Of a stretch of 64,000 nucleotides of DNA, positions 9,072 through 29,606 are shown piece after piece. Both the position numbers and the translations under genes were made by a program. This stretch comes from Escherichia phage V18. The notes under the pieces are model-generated. The model saw nothing but the letters and a program-made list of their open reading frames with translations, was not told where the DNA came from and searched no databases. The DNA lies in sequence record NC_041937.1, one strand, 5' to 3'. How positions within the stretch are numbered: position 1 is the first letter of the stretch; the number at the start of each line of letters is the position of its first letter.

Positions 9072-9983
9072 TTATTTCCCGTTAACTTTGTCGTAGTTTC
9101 CCTGTTCAGATGGGACTATGGTAGAAGGTCTTCCATATTCCTGATAATACCAATCCGCAGCCGATTGGGTAACACCGTTTTCATCTGTCCACATCATAGA
9201 TTTATATGGCTGCCACTCCTCTGCAGCATTTGTGGATGCAGTGTCTGCAAATGCCCCTGTGTCCCTCTTGTTACCTACGTTACTACCATTCTTACAGTCG
9301 TTGACAGCACCTTTTTGTTGGGTCTTGCCTACTTTCTTAGGGTTGCTGTATACGGTTGCATTAACAACCTTGTTCAAGTAGAATGTGCGGAACTCTGTAA
9401 GTTCTACATCAAACACCATTGCAGCACCTTCACCAACAGACTTGCTGGCAGAAAGGCTGGTTATGATGTAGTTCTCAAGAAGTCTCTCCTCGGTAACCAA
9501 AGAAACCAACTGTCGCTTATTAATGATCTCAGTCAAAGCCTCCAGTGCGGCACCTGGTCGCATAGATGCTGCAGGGTTTTTAGAGTCAGTATTCCTATCG
9601 ATGTAGTTTTGCTCATAGATTATATGTGGGGATGTATTTACCCTACCAGTAAAAGAAAATACACCATCTTTAATCACAGCGTGGTCTGACAGGGTAGATT
9701 TATCTTCCACCGCAAACCCCGTCTTATCAACAGAGTGTTTGAAAGAGTAATTCTCAACCTGATCGAAGATAATGGCAAGATCGTTAGTGAAGTTTTTACC
9801 CTTCATCTCTATGTTGCGACCGCCATAGTTAAGACCGCTGACAAACATAGTGTACTTTACATCGCTTTCGGTTTGCTGCTCTGCCTTTTCAGCCTTTGGA
9901 GATTTAACCTCTCGAGGCTTGTACAGGTCTTTTTCATCAACTATGTTACTTTGCATAACCTCTCCAGGACACTCCGATACCAT
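9072..9983 (-). CDS. hypothetical tail protein
   Basis: 303 aa ORF directly downstream of tape measure gene. Confidence 0.4.
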   Translation of the reverse strand: MVSECPGEVMQSNIVDEKDLYKPREVKSPKAEKAEQQTESDVKYTMFVSGLNYGGRNIEMKGKNFTNDLAIIFDQVENYSFKHSVDKTGFAVEDKSTLSDHAVIKDGVFSFTGRVNTSPHIIYEQNYIDRNTDSKNPAASMRPGAALEALTEIINKRQLVSLVTEERLLENYIITSLSASKSVGEGAAMVFDVELTEFRTFYLNKVVNATVYSNPKKVGKTQQKGAVNDCKNGSNVGNKRDTGAFADTASTNAAEEWQPYKSMMWTDENGVTQSAADWYYQEYGRPSTIVPSEQGNYDKVNGK

Positions 9984-10059: not shown

Positions 10060-11559
10060 TTACCAAAGGTCGGTAGACATGAAGTTGATATCTTTGCTGT
10101 TCTCCCACTCAAGTTTTGCATCAAGTATTTTGCTAAACTCACCCTCATCTATGGAAAGCGTGATTTTCCCATCACTGATCTCTAAAGGTAGCATTTCCAT
10201 AGTTCTTAATTGAGAAGCAAAACCAGGGCCACCTGGCAACGGAAGAGTCCCGCCCGGCAAAGTGTCCAAAGGATTAACAAACCCGTTACCTCCCGATATG
10301 ATATCTTTGCGAATCATATCGCTGATAGTATCCAGTTGCTGATTTCTTTCACTCAGTGGGTTGAAACGGTCATTAAATAATTCCCCGGCGCTTAATATTG
10401 TACCGATAATGCCCAGCTTGCCGAGCAGACCAACTTTACCACCAGGTGTCTTGAGGCCACCTCCACCTTTTCCTGCCGCGCCACCACTACTAGATCCTTC
10501 TGCAGTAGCGGCACCCGCTGCTCCAGCTGCACCCCTTAGAGAGTTAAGGAATTTAAAGGTTTTTACAAGCATAGATGCCATGACAAAACCTTTTGTTAGG
10601 GCGTTGACTACCAGCATGATGGCAGCAGCAAACCCTGCCCATTTAGCATAGCTAAAGGTGTCATGAAGCTCTTCAGAATATTCCTTCGTCTTAGCTGTTA
10701 TGAATCCCCATTTAATCCCCCATTCAAGGAAAAACATGCGGATCTTGACTATAGTGTTGTTTAGTTCACCAACTACCCAGTTAAGGCCTCTCACAAACCC
10801 ACTAACAAAATCACCAGAGGCATCCCACACAAATTGCAGAGTCTCACCAGTGCGGATTAATGTATAATAGAACTCTGTTAGTTCGTCAGACCAACGGGTG
10901 AACAGTTTCTGACGAGTCAGTTCGATGAAGGTTTTCAGTCTGTTTTCTGCCAGCACGTTAGACTTCTGCATTCTTTCATAACCAGCTGCAGATGCCTCGT
11001 TCATGTACTTAGCCACATACTTCATGATCTTGGCTGTTTTAACCTCACCTTTCTTCATCATGTCCATGAACTGATCCATGGATAGTTCAGAAAGACCAAA
11101 AGCCTCTTTAGTGGCCTTGATAAAAGGTTCGTATGCACCAGGCAAGGCTTCAGCAAGTTGTTGCTTCAGTTCTTCGGACATTACTTGTCCCTTGCCAAGC
11201 ATCTGTTGGATTGCCATAATACCGCGCTGGTATTTTACCTCATCAGCACCATAAGCAGCAGCATACTGGGAGTATGCAGAAAACAGCTCATGCACTTCCT
11301 GATTTGTCATCTGGTTTTTGGCGTTTACCGACATCTGGGCGTAACCTTGAAGACCAGATTTGAGATCAAAACCAAGACGCATAGCCTCTTGCTGGACAAA
11401 CGCAACCTCACTGTTGGCTTTGTTTGGATCTCCAGTAACAGCAGTAAGAGCAGCACTTGCCCCCTCCATCATGTGACCGGATCTGTTAACCGCAGCAAAT
11501 CCAGAAAAAGCTGTATACGCAGCTGTTGCATTAATAACAGATCTACGTAAGTCTCTCAT
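10060..11559 (-). CDS. tape measure protein
   Basis: 499 aa; long helical protein with hydrophobic segment and Gly-rich stretch (GAAGAAGAATAEGSSSGGAAGKGGGG); sits after tube and chaperone genes. Confidence 0.65.
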   Translation of the reverse strand: MRDLRRSVINATAAYTAFSGFAAVNRSGHMMEGASAALTAVTGDPNKANSEVAFVQQEAMRLGFDLKSGLQGYAQMSVNAKNQMTNQEVHELFSAYSQYAAAYGADEVKYQRGIMAIQQMLGKGQVMSEELKQQLAEALPGAYEPFIKATKEAFGLSELSMDQFMDMMKKGEVKTAKIMKYVAKYMNEASAAGYERMQKSNVLAENRLKTFIELTRQKLFTRWSDELTEFYYTLIRTGETLQFVWDASGDFVSGFVRGLNWVVGELNNTIVKIRMFFLEWGIKWGFITAKTKEYSEELHDTFSYAKWAGFAAAIMLVVNALTKGFVMASMLVKTFKFLNSLRGAAGAAGAATAEGSSSGGAAGKGGGGLKTPGGKVGLLGKLGIIGTILSAGELFNDRFNPLSERNQQLDTISDMIRKDIISGGNGFVNPLDTLPGGTLPLPGGPGFASQLRTMEMLPLEISDGKITLSIDEGEFSKILDAKLEWENSKDINFMSTDLW

Positions 11560-16269: not shown

Positions 16270-16740
16270 TTACTGTCCGATTTTAAAGGTTGCAGATTCA
16301 AGCAGCACATCGTAATGCCGCATAGCCTCGTTGAAGCCCTTTTCTTGTGCCCACTGCTCACTAACAGTAGGATTACTAAACTGCCCAGCCTCAATAACAA
16401 ACTGGATAGCTTTGGCCCCTGTGTCCCCCATCTGCTTAAGAATAGCCTCTGCACTTGATCCTCTAGCCATAGCTCTCAACAATTTTTCTGTCAAGGTCTG
16501 TAGTTGAGCACTGTGAAATGCAAAGGCTGTCTCCATGAAATTGCGAACAGGCAGCCCGTTCCAACCGAAGTTGTGAATGGCTGCCAATGTTGCCATATTT
16601 AAGCCTGACGGGTGAGGTTCGTCATAAAAGCCGTAGGTTATTGTTTTGCTTTCAAGTCTCACAAGATCTTTGTAGAAGCGATCTAAACGCTTTAGGTTGA
16701 ACCTTGTTTGACACTTAACCTTTAGCATTATATCCCTCAC
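16270..16740 (-). CDS. hypothetical head-tail joining/completion protein
   Basis: 156 aa ORF in same co-oriented array. Confidence 0.4.
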   Translation of the reverse strand: MRDIMLKVKCQTRFNLKRLDRFYKDLVRLESKTITYGFYDEPHPSGLNMATLAAIHNFGWNGLPVRNFMETAFAFHSAQLQTLTEKLLRAMARGSSAEAILKQMGDTGAKAIQFVIEAGQFSNPTVSEQWAQEKGFNEAMRHYDVLLESATFKIGQ

Positions 16741-24531: not shown

Positions 24532-24608
24532 TGGTCTCCACGGAGTGATTCGAACACTCGACCTCCTGATCCCAATGGTTTATCTCTACCAAGCTGAGCT
24601 ACGCGGAG
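24532..24608 (-). tRNA. tRNA-like gene, Pro(UGG)-like, with non-pairing 5' anticodon-stem strand
   Basis: Hand-folded: acceptor CTCCGCG/CGTGGAG, T-arm GAGTG-TTCGAAT-CACTC, encoded CCA, loop ATTGGGA, but AAACC cannot pair with TCAGG. Confidence 0.45.
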
Positions 24609-24619
24609 TATTTATTATT

Positions 24620-24694
24620 TGGTGGCCCTGGGTGGAATTGAACCACCGTCTGGCGATTATGAGTCGCTTGCTTGAACCTTCCAGCTACAGGGCA
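24620..24694 (-). tRNA. tRNA-Met (anticodon CAT)
   Basis: Hand-folded cloverleaf: anticodon loop CTCATAA, T-arm GGTGG-TTCAATT-CCACC, encoded CCA; position 1:72 is a T:C mismatch. Confidence 0.6.
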
Positions 24695-24770
24695 TGGTGC
24701 TGATAGCAGGACTCGAACCTGCAACCTATTGATTACAAATCAATTGCACTACCAATTGTGCTACATCAGC
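24695..24770 (-). tRNA. tRNA-Thr (anticodon TGT)
   Basis: Acceptor GCTGATG/TATCAGC, D-arm GCAC/GTGC, anticodon stem ATTGA/TCAAT with loop TTTGTAA, T-arm GCAGG-TTCGAGT-CCTGC, CCA encoded. Confidence 0.7.
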
Positions 24771-24867
24771 AAAAAGGTGCTAGGTGATGGAATCGAACCA
24801 CCTATGTATTCAACGACCAATAGATTTACAGTCTACACCGCTACCTCTACGGGATAACTCCCCAATT
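24771..24867 (-). tRNA. tRNA-like element with Tyr(GUA)-type anticodon arm; acceptor stem not resolved
   Basis: Anticodon arm GTAGA-CTGTAAA-TCTAT and T-arm GGTGG-TTCGATT-CCATC present, long variable region, but 5' and 3' ends do not pair; may be degenerate or mis-folded by me. Confidence 0.3.
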
Positions 24868-24942
24868 TGGCACCCCGTACTGGACTCGAACCAGTGTCAA
24901 CGGCTTAGAAGGCCGCTGCTTTATCCACTAAGCTAACAGGGC
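24868..24942 (-). tRNA. tRNA-Arg (anticodon TCT)
   Basis: Acceptor GCCCTGT/ACGGGGT with G:U pairs, D-arm GCTT/AAGC, anticodon stem GCGGC/GCCGT with loop CTTCTAA, T-arm ACTGG-TTCGAGT-CCAGT, CCA encoded. Confidence 0.65.
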
Positions 24943-25434: not shown

Positions 25435-25721
25435 GTTCGCCGCAGGGGTGTATTCCCTGCGACTTGCCCAGCGTCCTGGACCAGCAAGACCCAACAAGTG
25501 GGTTACCAGAGCACATTACCGCGCTTTGGCTCGACCTTATTACAGGTTGGCTGGGGTCACATCGTCATGTGCTGGCTGCCCCTACCATTTTAAGTGTGGT
25601 GCACTATCAAGCCCTCTAAGGGGAACTCAGTCTTCTCCGAACCCTGTTTCAAAACATCCGGAGATAAAGCCATCAAATTCATCTTTAAATCGGATATTCA
25701 TCATGATACACGAAAACAACC

Positions 25722-26240: not shown

Positions 26241-26819
26241 TCAGCGTTCATAATAAATCTTATTTAACATTACCTCATCCTTTGCAGAGAGAATACCGAG
26301 ATATGCATCACCGAACCTACCTGCAACAACCTCTACATGATACATCACTTCGTTAATATCGTCAAGAGTGATAACTGGATGACCGTATCTCTCTGAGTAT
26401 TGTCTCAGAGTGCGATGTAGGGAATCATCATCGTAGGCAGACTTTTTAATATCACAAACACGACGAATAGCCTTGATGTCGAAAAACCCTGTGCGATACC
26501 AACCAAGAAAAAGGTTTCGTACAGTGTCAACACCTACATCAACACCGTCAAGAACCTTATCTACAAGATAACTGTCATCCTTTGGACCTGCTTCCTTAGT
26601 GCGAATGTAGTTGCCATCTTTTCCAGGTGACATCTCCTTCTCATCACCAACCTGAATACCATCATTTGGTGGTGTTAACCACTTATCCGGATGCTTACGA
26701 TCACGAGCGTTAGAATGATTACGCTGGAAACCTGGCTTCCACTTGAAAGTTTTCTCCATCTGTTCTTCATTCTGATAACGTTTTGCAATCTTTTCACGGT
26801 CATCTTTGCGTGGACTCAT
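26241..26819 (-). CDS. hypothetical protein
   Basis: 192 aa ORF with good coding composition; no motif recognised. Confidence 0.5.
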   Translation of the reverse strand: MSPRKDDREKIAKRYQNEEQMEKTFKWKPGFQRNHSNARDRKHPDKWLTPPNDGIQVGDEKEMSPGKDGNYIRTKEAGPKDDSYLVDKVLDGVDVGVDTVRNLFLGWYRTGFFDIKAIRRVCDIKKSAYDDDSLHRTLRQYSERYGHPVITLDDINEVMYHVEVVAGRFGDAYLGILSAKDEVMLNKIYYER

Positions 26820-27180
26820 AGCTGCCTCCTCTTCAAGTTATAGAAAAACTCACTGTATCGCTTTGTAACGAGCTTTTCTATCAAACTGGTGCGATTGCCT
26901 TACCTGGTATAGTTTATATAGCTGTGGAGCGATTTAGGGGCCTTCTTGTCCGTTTCCACACATAAACTTCATCCAAGCTCGCGCGGGAGACTCTCAACCG
27001 ACTCCTTACGGCGCTGGCAAGCTTTCGTCGGTGGTCCACATCAGTGCTCGGCCTTTGGCCTGCGCTATCGCTTCGCTCCCACACATGTTAACAGACCTGC
27101 ATGTATGCACTTCTGTTATTGTGTGCACCCGGGAGGCCCGGCATCTCGCCCCTCGTAGCGAGTGCCAATGAAGGGCCGAC

Positions 27181-27320
27181 ACTACCCGTAGTAAGTAATA
27201 AATTTAAAACATAGTACTTAGGATCTAGTATATTCTACATAAGTTAAGTATATGTACTTAGTACCATAAGTACTAGATCTTTTATTTTTTATTATTTAGT
27301 TATTTTAGTTATATTCTTTA
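27181..27320. other. AT-rich tract with short repeats (possible DNA unwinding element)
   Basis: Strongly AT-rich; repeated GTACTTAG / AGTACT words and tandem TTATTTTAG; lies between GC-rich segment and palindromic repeats. Confidence 0.4.
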
Positions 27321-27322
27321 TG

Positions 27323-27382
27323 TGTCCGTATCACGGACAGTTAGTGTCCGTATGACGGACAGTAGTGTCCGTATCACGGACA
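27323..27382. repeat. three phased palindromic repeats (iteron/operator-like array)
   Basis: TGTCCGTATCACGGACA at 27323-27339 and 27366-27382, TGTCCGTATGACGGACA at 27345-27361; 7 bp arms, 3 bp centre, 21-22 bp phasing. Confidence 0.7.
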
Positions 27383-27457
27383 GTTACTAACCTCTGTTCC
27401 ATAGCGAACATAAAACATACGAATCCTTATAGTACAGATATTTAAGTTTTTACTGGT

Positions 27458-27808
27458 CTAACCAGTTGTTGACATTCGAATAACTTCTTCTGGTGGCAAA
27501 ACTTTGGAAAATGTGCATCTTTTACCTCTCCCTTGTGTGGATATTTCAACCACTCCTGCACATTCTAAAGTTTTAACGCACGCTGCTGCTTTTGTTTTCT
27601 TTATCCCAATATCTGCTGCAATTTTCCTTGTGCTGGGCGTGAAGCGTGAATTTCCTCCAAGCTTATACCAGTTGTGCAGGTAGCAGTATACGATCTTGTC
27701 ATATAAGTCAAGAACAACAACCTCACCAGTTGTGTCATTCAAAACTTTTGACATAGACAGTATTTCAAGGGGGACTTTAAGATATAGCAGCTTATCCCCA
27801 TCTTTCAT
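27458..27808 (-). CDS. small winged-helix DNA-binding protein (putative regulator or initiator)
   Basis: 116 aa; FTPSTRKIAADIGIKKTKAAACVKTLECAGVVEIS resembles a wHTH recognition region; 3' end lies about 75 bp from three palindromic repeats. Confidence 0.5.
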   Translation of the reverse strand: MKDGDKLLYLKVPLEILSMSKVLNDTTGEVVVLDLYDKIVYCYLHNWYKLGGNSRFTPSTRKIAADIGIKKTKAAACVKTLECAGVVEISTQGRGKRCTFSKVLPPEEVIRMSTTG

Positions 27809-27855
27809 ATCTCCTGATTCTCCTTGTGTGGCAATTTTCTTTAAAATAGCAGGGA

Positions 27856-28410
27856 TTACTCCCCGCTGTCAATAGCAAGACTCATTGCAATACGGTATGC
27901 CTCTTCTAATGGTAAGAGTCTCCCCCACACATCCCAACCGACATCAAACTGCCTGCCAAACAACTGCTGTGTGGTTCCGTGAGCATGACCGAACAGTTGG
28001 ACCGATCCGTGAGGCTTTCTGTTCCACTTTGCAAACTGGTAATGGCTCATACAGATCAAATTCTTGTTGTGGCGAAGCTCGTAATAATCTACAACCTCAT
28101 GACCGAACTCTTTCATAATTCTGACAGTCGTCCTTGTGTCATGGTTACCACGAACAAGAATAATATGTCCGTTCAACATATTTAGAACATCTGGGAGCAA
28201 TTTGTTAATATTCTTATCATTAGTGCACGCAATATCTCCTAAGTGAAACACAGTGTCTGCAGGTGACACAACAGAGTTCCACTTGGTGATGATCCCCGCA
28301 TTCATACTGTCAAGATTGTGATCATACTGAGATCTGTGTTTTTGACATGAGTCAAACTCCATGACCCGCTGGTGGAGAAAGTGTGTGTCGCTTGTTACAA
28401 AGTATTTCAT
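27856..28410 (-). CDS. calcineurin-like metallophosphoesterase (putative polynucleotide 3'/2',3'-phosphatase)
   Basis: Start at ATG 28410 (MKYFVTSDTHFLHQ) with GAGGA RBS; motifs DTHF, HLGDIA, RGNHD, GHAH. Confidence 0.65.
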   Translation of the reverse strand: MKYFVTSDTHFLHQRVMEFDSCQKHRSQYDHNLDSMNAGIITKWNSVVSPADTVFHLGDIACTNDKNINKLLPDVLNMLNGHIILVRGNHDTRTTVRIMKEFGHEVVDYYELRHNKNLICMSHYQFAKWNRKPHGSVQLFGHAHGTTQQLFGRQFDVGWDVWGRLLPLEEAYRIAMSLAIDSGE

Positions 28411-28417
28411 ACATTCC

Positions 28418-28828
28418 TCATTTAAGTTTAATGCAGTTTTTAAGCTGGCGTTCCATACGATCCACAACCCTGTCTGGAACATCATGAATGCTTTTACTAC
28501 CATGGCGGTTTTCAACCACGATTACGGTATAACTATACCCATGACTGATCGCCATGTCAATATATTCTTGCACATATTTTTCTTTTGTAAATGTATTACT
28601 TACCACGATACGGTCGTATCCCATACGCATCATATCTTCTACGTTATCTTTGCACCATTTTGCTGCAAGTGTTACTTTACTTGCATCCCAGTTGTAATTT
28701 CCATCATCGTCGTACCAGAACATGTCGTTCTCAAAATGTGGATACAGACCTTCTAAAGATAGCGCACTTGCCAGTGTTGATTTGCCAGACCCTGGTAGAC
28801 CACGCACGATATATAGCATTTTAGACAT
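28418..28828 (-). CDS. P-loop polynucleotide kinase-like protein
   Basis: Start at ATG 28828 (MSKMLYIVRGLPGSGKSTLA) with GGAGG RBS; resembles T4 Pnk kinase domain; stop overlaps phosphatase RBS. Confidence 0.6.
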   Translation of the reverse strand: MSKMLYIVRGLPGSGKSTLASALSLEGLYPHFENDMFWYDDDGNYNWDASKVTLAAKWCKDNVEDMMRMGYDRIVVSNTFTKEKYVQEYIDMAISHGYSYTVIVVENRHGSKSIHDVPDRVVDRMERQLKNCIKLK

Positions 28829-28856
28829 AGTAATCCTCCGTTTTAATTTCAACGAT

Positions 28857-28885
28857 AGTATACCTAACTGTTTTGTTAATTTCAA
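28857..28885 (-). promoter_or_regulatory. sigma70-like promoter for kinase/phosphatase operon
   Basis: Minus strand TTGAAA-N17-TATACT in divergent intergenic region. Confidence 0.4.
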
Positions 28886-28928
28886 GTGTTGACACTAGGT
28901 TATTTGTGTGGCAGGATAGACTGACAAA

Positions 28929-29606
28929 ATGACAAATGAGGAACGTATGATGAAGTATTTTAATGCAGACGACCTAGTTGACAAAGGTCTTGTAACCAGC
29001 AGATATTACACAGATCTTGGGTTAAAGATCTATAAATATGCCAGAAAAGTATTTTACAACAATTTATGGCATTTGTCCCCTCGTTTACTGGAGTGCCGAG
29101 GCATTGTTGTCGGTAATGAAGGAAATGTTGTGGCATGGCCCTTCACAAAAGTGTTTAACTTGGGAGAAAACTCCACCAACCTGTCTGACAATAAGCTTGT
29201 GACGGCGGTAGAGAAAAAGAACGGATTCCTTGGTGTGGTATCATCTCATAAAGGTGAACTATTGTTCTCAACAACCGGATCTCTTGATTCTCCATATTGT
29301 AACCTCGCAAAGGAAACCATCCAGGAGCAATGTGGTAATTTAGATCTTATCAAGAAGGTTATGGGCAATGAAAACATGACATTCATGTTTGAAATTTGTC
29401 ACCCTTCAGATCCGCATATTGTTCAGGAAGATCATGGCGCATATTTGATAGGTTGCAGGTATAATGATTCTGGAATAATGCTACCAGAGGCAGCTTTAGA
29501 TGGGATTGCCAAATACCTTGGTGCAAAACGTCCTCACACTGTGCGTGAAATTCCGTTCAGCTATGCAAAAGAATTGGCTGCAGAAACAAGAGGTGAAGGT
29601 ATATGA
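28929..29606 (+). CDS. putative RNA/DNA ligase-like nucleotidyltransferase
   Basis: 225 aa; candidate motif I lysine in VEKKNGFLGV (KxNG); divergent from kinase/phosphatase operon; assignment tentative. Confidence 0.45.
   Translation: MTNEERMMKYFNADDLVDKGLVTSRYYTDLGLKIYKYARKVFYNNLWHLSPRLLECRGIVVGNEGNVVAWPFTKVFNLGENSTNLSDNKLVTAVEKKNGFLGVVSSHKGELLFSTTGSLDSPYCNLAKETIQEQCGNLDLIKKVMGNENMTFMFEICHPSDPHIVQEDHGAYLIGCRYNDSGIMLPEAALDGIAKYLGAKRPHTVREIPFSYAKELAAETRGEGI

Follow-up and report, generated by a model that had tools for sequence, protein, structure and literature searches.

A GC-rich, hairpin-dense element in the genome of Escherichia phage V18, a Vequintavirus (rV5-like) myophage of E. coli, is genuine, non-coding and conserved, and is most likely a working part of the replication origin that it adjoins, not a free-standing small RNA. 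The element maps to positions 26932–27185 of the 64,000-nucleotide (nt) stretch of DNA analysed here (sequence record NC_041937.1; hereafter the window). We favour an origin part because the element always adjoins an initiator gene, iterons and an AT-rich stretch. Copies carried by phages and by small E. coli plasmids differ by compensatory changes in their stems, and this comparison indicates that the hairpins are under selection. Our preferred reading, put forward tentatively, is that the element is a cis-acting origin component able to act as a single strand, such as a signal for priming or for loading of the helicase, or else a transcript of the origin. Its role in replication, its action as a single strand (of DNA or RNA), the strand that is active and the factor by which it is read are inferred.

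The sense of the element was set by its flanking genes and corresponds to the minus strand; its bounds were drawn from an alignment of 13 phage copies and from plasmid copies. The conserved region slightly exceeds the interval (26940–27180) outlined in the first-pass annotation, which had been made from the sequence alone. The GC excess reported there is confirmed, as this interval has a GC content of 0.581, compared with 0.417 (26700–26939) and 0.317 (27181–27420) in its flanks and 0.434 in the whole window. The three hairpins listed in the same annotation are all present. Those of sequence CTCGC-N8-GCGAG (27145–27162) and GGCC-TTT-GGCC (27050–27060) are kept in related phages. CCGGG-AGG-CCCGG (27129–27141) is unique to this window, and relatives carry CCATGG, CCTTGG or CTATAG at the same place. 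Folding energies are modest (minimum free energy z = -2.4 for the minus strand and -1.2 for the plus strand), and no consistent strand preference emerged from the z-scores of 13 homologues. It is the comparison with relatives, not thermodynamics, that marks the element as more than a chance occurrence. The element is found in all 117 matching phage records (88–99% identity), and the 641-bp stretch spanning it shows 90–99% identity to 117 phage records.

The segment had initially been described as a candidate structured noncoding RNA. The non-coding status and the selected structure hold; the small-RNA label is not established. A covariance-model search, one of the checks proposed at that stage, detected only tRNAs in the window at the gathering threshold, none of them on the element. 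When hits with E up to 10 were considered, the sole overlap was with rli43 (27.9 bits, gathering threshold 100), mostly over the AT-rich stretch. A consensus scan assigned neither a sigma-70 promoter nor an intrinsic terminator to the element, and ARAGORN detects no tRNA or tmRNA at the element, in keeping with the earlier statement that no tRNA-like T-loop was seen. Nothing resembling a ribozyme, another of the initial suggestions, was seen. The idea of a mobile-element remnant survives in part: the element travels in a cassette, together with initiator, iterons and AT-rich stretch, that is inserted at a second locus in some phages, but it is not a decayed remnant, since it is conserved in every Vequintavirus record matched. 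The comparative alignment that had also been recommended revealed the compensatory changes between phage and plasmid copies.

Matches to the element in two blocks, with 84% identity, were identified by BLAST in circular E. coli “plasmids” of 13.2–13.9 kb; one 39.6-kb record holds three plasmid copies. We examined seven plasmids and two metagenome contigs (L003, i.e., NZ_CP020521.1, L004, L005, L029–L032, L016 and L021). A core of about 105 nt (26980–27085, minus strand), described by the covariance model R1, is common to all phage and plasmid copies. Plasmid cores are of two types. Type A cores feature the phage loop, and type B cores an unrelated 22-nt loop, AUAAGAGACUUCUGUUUCCAAU. The model finds one match per phage or plasmid locus, with a score of 115 bits and no second copy in the window, and recovers copies not included in the seed (L042, L045 and L046) at E values of 1e-11 to 1e-12.

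Stems are maintained by different base pairs in different copies. The stem closing the long loop is ACCGAC/GUCGGU in phages, GCUGCC/GGCAGC in type A, GUCCGG/CCGGAC in type B and GUUCGG/CCGAAC at a second phage locus. The small hairpin is similarly GGCC-AAA-GGCC in phages, AUGC-GUCA-GCAU in type A, GUGC-GAUA-GCAC in type B and GUGC-GUUA-GCAC at the second phage locus. Two distal stems, GGCA/UGCC and CUCGCC/GGCGAG in phages, are replaced by GUCA/UGAC and CUCUCC/GGAGAG, respectively, in the type A plasmid L003, and are absent both in type B and at the second phage locus. Each of the hairpins H1–H3 of the plasmid modules occurs in two or three fully compensated versions. These comparisons were made on a manual stem table, because the MAFFT alignments A1 and A2 place both UGUGUGGG and the stems of type B out of register.

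On the model-based alignment, 19 cells are changed on both sides of a pair, against 4.9 +/- 1.7 in shuffled alignments, and none of 500 shuffles reaches the observed number. The covariation score (0.199, against 0.084 in shuffles) is likewise reached in none of 500 shuffles, and exceeds that of all slid controls. Since type B stems are misaligned in this alignment (A4), the shuffle test understates the covariation. When RNAalifold was run on 12 phage copies alone, the covariation term of the resulting global fold was positive and only two pairs were changed on both sides; the phage copies by themselves differ too little for a global structure to be defined. A UUCG tetraloop, considered as an RNA signature, was discarded, as a UUC triloop gives a better register.

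Iterons of 21–23 bp, an AT-rich stretch and the element follow each other in the same order in four settings, and both initiators and iterons differ each time. In the window, the AT-rich stretch (27186–27320; GC content about 0.31, and 0.31 at 27200–27399) contains GATC sites and inverted repeats and is the presumed DNA-unwinding region. It is followed by three 22-nt iterons, GTGTCCGTATCACGGACAGTTA (27322–27386; spacing 21–22 bp), the unit of which may be written as GTGTCCGTATCACGGACAG, repeated three times between the AT-rich stretch and the initiator gene. Other Vequintaviruses have four iterons. The adjoining gene (27458–27808, minus strand) encodes a winged-helix protein of 116 residues, a putative replication initiator featuring the Pfam HTH_36 and DUF6945 domains, which matches the PHROG family 12838 “replication initiation protein” (E = 3e-80) and, more weakly, two other initiator families. 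The locus thus combines the features of an iteron origin, a winged-helix initiator gene next to at least three direct repeats spaced by approximately two helical turns and flanking an AT-rich stretch. No DnaA box (TTATCCACA, up to one mismatch) was found in the phage region, and a priming site of the ABC type is therefore unsupported.

A divergent metagenomic phage (L006) carries the element at 83% identity, next to an unrelated-looking initiator of 143 residues, different iterons and an A-rich stretch. The type B loop was found in a scan of viral contigs at another locus of the same phage genome (L042). Type B cassettes are inserted between conserved early genes in two Logan contigs, L045 (2444–3500) and L046, and in L042. 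The second-locus cassette consists of a gene for an initiator-like protein of 153 residues, 5 iterons, an AT-rich stretch, approximately 270 nt of hairpins, the type B core, a promoter and the next gene. The promoter immediately following the type B core, TTGCAA-N17-TATAGT, was recognised by eye as of the sigma-70 type. At the same site, slur16, L047 and L048 lack the cassette and have 60–70 nt. As this second cassette is inserted in some uncultured phages resembling Vequintavirus, two such modules can coexist in a single genome. No match to the type B sequence was found in cultured phages. In the nine plasmids and contigs, at least three kinds of iterons precede the AT-rich stretch and the element. 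Iteron arrays are spaced by 21–23 bp in L045, L006 and the plasmid L005.

The initiators encoded in the window, in L006, in L045 and in the plasmids are distantly interrelated. The window, L006 and plasmid proteins match PHROG replication-initiation families, and the L045 protein matches a DnaD-like helicase-loader family. Loop type does not follow initiator type, as the initiators of L030 and L032 are 93% identical and the two plasmids have loops of different type; the loop is therefore recognised by a factor distinct from the initiator. Nor does the element depend on the gene downstream, which encodes a 192-residue protein, since a 51%-identical homologue of this gene has no such element upstream. 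In the phage collection, the two flanking proteins are both confined to Vequintavirus.

Pattern scans of genome and metagenome contigs yielded mostly chance matches (in Collinsella and others), in addition to five phage and two plasmid contigs. A host-derived origin of the element was dismissed: sensitive BLAST searches of complete E. coli genomes gave no chromosomal match, and small plasmids only. Among the phage records, 18 are labelled “Campylobacter phage” (MG0656xx; hits H5–H7 and others) and are 89–98% identical to E. coli Vequintaviruses over the locus; they are probably mislabelled or derived from contaminating coliphages.

The cassette thus comprises a gene for a small winged-helix initiator similar to lambda O, 3–5 iterons of 21–23 bp, the AT-rich unwinding stretch and the element, and we suggest that it may work as follows. 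Binding of the initiator to the iterons would melt the AT-rich stretch. The element, made single-stranded by the spreading bubble or by the transcript of the initiator gene, would fold into its conserved hairpins. The replication machinery would then recognise hairpins and single-stranded motifs (UGUGUGGG, AUGUGGA and the 22–24-nt loop), which would nucleate priming, helicase loading or both, with synthesis heading away from the iterons. A close variant would be an origin transcript serving as primer or activator. Plasmids having the same element beside their own iterons could exploit this machinery as well, perhaps when it is supplied by an rV5-like phage that infects the cell. Stems are almost purely Watson–Crick and the two strands fold about equally, as would be the case for hairpins formed at the DNA level. 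As would be expected of a single-strand signal, conserved hairpins are found at the origin, beyond the unwinding region, in four contexts.

Known origins provide partial parallels. The oriV of plasmid RSF1010 includes two hairpin signals for priming, ssiA and ssiB (PMC8567376), and mini-hairpin motifs have been reported both at the priming site of phage G4 and in RSF1010 ssiA (review, PMC13037366). Like the ssi signals, either those of RSF1010, which are read by the primase RepB', or the G4- and PriA-type signals of R1 and pAMbeta1, the element is conserved hairpin DNA located past iterons and an AT-rich stretch, and it contains the mini-hairpin motifs GCGAAGC and CCGAAGG. In contrast to ssiA and ssiB, which are 40 nt each and form an inverted pair, the element is 250–450 nt long, modular and present in one orientation. 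The origin of phage lambda features the O protein, four iterons, an AT-rich region and an adjacent inverted repeat. The order of components in the phage cassette is the same, from an O-like winged-helix initiator (PHROG “replication initiation O-like”) to iterons, AT-rich stretch and GC-rich palindromic region. However, the initiator gene does not contain the iterons here, the proteins it encodes are much shorter (116–153 residues in phages), and the structured arm, which has conserved loops, is approximately ten times longer.

Several points weigh against an origin component of this kind. Adjacency to origins may simply be inherited, if a single ancestral cassette had its initiator and iterons swapped by recombination and the element served as a homology arm. 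The Watson–Crick excess in the defined stems (182 Watson–Crick, 4 G-U and 1 A-C pairs) is biased, the stems having been chosen by eye. Beyond the short GCGAAGC and CCGAAGG motifs, no similarity to known priming signals was noticed, no library of such signals having been searched; moreover, the CCGAAGG motif of the plasmids lies on the strand opposite to that of the phage GCGAAGC. Priming does not account for the repeated motif similar to boxC, including an identity of 13 nt to the rrnB leader. Finally, in the phage the element is probably part of an early-operon transcript, and a role at the RNA level fits its position equally well.

No mapped replication origin was found in the literature for the rV5 group of large virulent phages infecting E. 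coli. The locus is a concrete candidate for such an origin, in which an exchangeable recognition module, made of initiator and iterons, is combined with a conserved structured arm.

Alternatively, the element may act as an RNA transcribed from the minus strand, a hypothesis that we consider rather unlikely. Within the early operon it could work as a leader or between cistrons, mimicking the leader of rrn operons and serving RNA processing, RNA stability or modification of the elongating RNA polymerase, or else it could be a decoy acting in trans on a host factor or on the 16S trailer. The resemblance is specific. The boxC sequence is UCUGUGUGGG (PMC10250234), and UGUGUGGG is identical to its core. 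Plasmid copies contain 2–4 boxC-like motifs between hairpins, UCUGUGUGGG and CAAUCUGUGUGGG being both present, and three plasmids are identical to the rrnB leader over the 13 nt of CAAUCUGUGUGGG. All copies, in the window, in L042/L045 and in the plasmids, share the sense of the downstream gene, and in the window the minus strand folds slightly better. A helix predicted between UGUGUGGG and CCCGCGCG is possible in the minus-strand RNA only, because it requires G-U pairs. Transcription may be provided by a sigma-70-like promoter, TTGACA-18-TATTTT (27843–27872, minus strand), detected by consensus scan 5' of the initiator gene. This is the nearest promoter upstream of the element, at a distance of approximately 690 nt. 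As no terminator-like site was found by the consensus scan between this promoter and the element, read-through transcription of the element is likely.

Other observations argue against an RNA function of this type. As in rrn leaders and in the lambda nut sites (boxB-boxA-boxC), a boxC is followed by hairpins, and may pair with a downstream sequence as boxC does with the 16S trailer. In contrast to these systems, the element has no usable boxA, its motif is repeated, it is not located just after a promoter, and it accompanies replication origins instead of long untranslated operons. No boxA (UGCUCUUUAACAA, up to 3 mismatches) was found between 25134 and 28391, and in the plasmids CUCUUUA, which resembles boxA, is buried as the 3' arm of a 10-bp hairpin. 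Strong sigma-70 promoters separate the element from the downstream genes both in L045 and in the plasmids, and the element is therefore not the leader of those genes; it also has no discrete promoter or terminator. No Rfam family is matched even at E up to 10, G-U pairs are almost missing from the supported stems, and z-scores show no strand bias. As for a trans-acting role, a search for sequences complementary to the loops of types A and B gave only matches of 8–11 nt, in about the number expected by chance. Nor would an RNA function explain why the element constantly accompanies iteron origins. Whether a phage origin, or its transcript, has borrowed a signal from the ribosomal RNA leader is a question raised by the motifs identical to boxC.

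That the element is a region for replicon control or incompatibility seems improbable. It could be a binding platform made of TGTGG/CCACA repeats, a barrier to melting or a transcriptional insulator, and indeed it always has the AT-rich stretch on one side and the next transcription unit on the other, and contains repeated TGTGG-type motifs in a single orientation. GC-rich segments flank the AT-rich stretch in the iteron origins of RK2, RSF1010 and lambda. However, neither a barrier nor a protein array needs compensatory changes in stems, and the element contains no U-tract terminators, just as the phage region has no DnaA box within one mismatch.

The plasmids are relevant to a further hypothesis. 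Each of them encodes major capsid, baseplate, tape measure and helix-turn-helix (HTH) proteins, a protein of 152 residues and a winged-helix protein of approximately 300 residues, and contains 2.2–2.9 kb of non-coding DNA. The baseplate, 152-residue and tape measure proteins are 51%, 44% and 28% identical, respectively, to proteins encoded in the window, in which the related regions are located at 9270–9884, 10666–11430 and 16300–16722. The plasmid capsid is only about 22% identical to any cultured phage capsid. No publication on the 13-kb plasmids was found, and these plasmid-like elements related to rV5-type phages are apparently an undescribed family. Their gene content suggests satellites or mini-phages of rV5-like phages that are carried as plasmids. 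In L003 (12040–12240) and at the equivalent positions of the other plasmids, the sequence ATTGACAAT is repeated three times and overlaps, as seen by eye, the promoter -35 boxes of the initiator operon; these repeats may be operator sites for a plasmid HTH protein.

The element is among only two non-coding sequences common to phage and plasmids, and satellites commonly copy the packaging site of their helper. A packaging signal of the pac or cos type, shared with a helper phage, is nevertheless very unlikely, and the element was rejected as a packaging site on account of the position of the genome ends and of a different shared sequence found there. The Vequintaviruses EdH4 and HdK5 have terminal redundancies of 458 bp (PMC6563267). 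In EdH4 the element is located near 96 kb of the 136-kb genome, and the ends are about 40 kb away. The second shared sequence, the 24-mer TTCTTATAACAATTCTCAAATATC, is situated 27–50 nt from the end of the EdH4 genome (L039, 27–50; L040, 2600–2623, in the terminal repeat). It is found in L003 at 519–542 and in all nine plasmid copies (23/24 nt), approximately 1.5 kb from the element. By sequence position, this 24-mer is a better candidate than the element for a shared packaging or terminase site.

The plasmids could be satellites of virulent rV5-like phages, sharing the element as a replication handle for their amplification after infection and the 24-mer for packaging, a scenario that we regard as doubtful. 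The handle would then be a structured signal recognised by priming or helicase-loading machinery, either the helper's own or one common to both. The arrangement is reminiscent of the cos sites of P2/P4 and of phage-inducible chromosomal islands (PICIs) carrying cos, in that a non-coding element is common to a phage and to small elements with phage-like structural genes. In contrast to these, the element in common lies away from the genome ends, and the plasmids are autonomous and circular, with an initiator and iterons of their own; their behaviour as satellites is suggested by gene content alone. In any case, the element links rV5-like phages to 13-kb plasmids with capsid, baseplate and tape measure genes. 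If the scenario were true, satellites persisting as plasmids would exploit a strictly lytic myovirus, using the element and the terminal 24-mer as handles.

A small protein encoded over the element, whether by the plus-strand open reading frame (ORF) at 26946–27158 (TTG start, 70 residues) or by the minus-strand ORF at 26914–27084 (56 residues), is scarcely credible: although the latter is open in 12 of 13 phages and hypothetical proteins are annotated in some GenBank phage records, the former, which the first-pass annotation had already judged implausible as a protein, is interrupted by in-frame stops in 10 of 13 related phages, variable columns show no third-position excess or codon periodicity (16/13/18 per codon position in the plus ORF and 14/18/16 in the minus ORF), neither ORF has a Pfam match, and plasmid copies retain the stems and lose the reading frames.

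The anatomy of the element, which we take to be the structured arm of an origin, is described here in minus-strand order. The distal domain (27132–27180) is made of the nested stems GGCCC/GGGCC, GGCA/UGCC and CUCGC(C)/GGCGAG, supported by compensatory changes in L003. It is missing from the other plasmids; in the plasmids its place is taken by up to three modules (at least one), in each of which UGUGUGGG precedes hairpins. A variable hairpin, AACAGA...UCUGUU (27090–27117), is dispensable, as it is partly deleted (18 nt) in the phages A6-1 and Pr121LW. The boxC-like motif UGUGUGGG (27078–27085, minus strand) is followed by the “mini-hairpin DNA” motif GCGAAGC (27070–27076, minus strand), a lead provided by a motif match; only 4 copies of this motif occur in the window, both strands combined.

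The GGCC-AAA/TTT-GGCC hairpin (27050–27060) is invariant in 14 phage copies. The segment AUGUGGA (27035–27041, minus strand; TCCACAT on the plus strand) is near-invariant in phages and in both plasmid types. The compensated 6-bp stem ACCGAC/GUCGGU (26997–27032, minus strand) closes a conserved loop of 24 nt, GAAAGCUUGCCAGCGCCGUAAGGA. The conserved CUCCCGCGCG (26980–26989, minus strand) is a possible partner of UGUGUGGG according to RNAalifold; the predicted pairs are invariant across copies, and the helix needs several G-U pairs. A second GU-rich copy, UAUGUGUGGAAAC, lies at 26952–26964 (minus strand), and in two phages a U-to-C change within it co-occurs with an A-to-G change at alignment column 168. 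Last in this order comes CCCCUAAAU (26940–26932, minus strand).

A second GC-rich (0.48–0.53), hairpin-rich non-coding block is located at 25440–25640 (minus strand; z = -2.05), directly upstream of a strong sigma-70-like promoter (25434–25406) and of a gene for a protein of 112 residues. It was rejected as a paralogue of the element, having no match to model R1, to E. coli or to Rfam families. Beyond the origin cassette and near a tRNA cluster, an RNA-repair set made of phosphoesterase, polynucleotide kinase and RNA ligase genes maps at 27856–29606; in relatives, a sirtuin-like gene follows this set. The tRNA cluster (24535–24942, minus strand) includes three confident tRNAs (Met/Ile-CAT, Thr and Arg), one marginal Rfam tRNA (32 bits, gathering threshold 29) and one below threshold (26 bits). 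As related phages are annotated with 6–7 tRNAs at this cluster, including Pro, Ser and Tyr, the window genome seems to have lost or degraded some of them.

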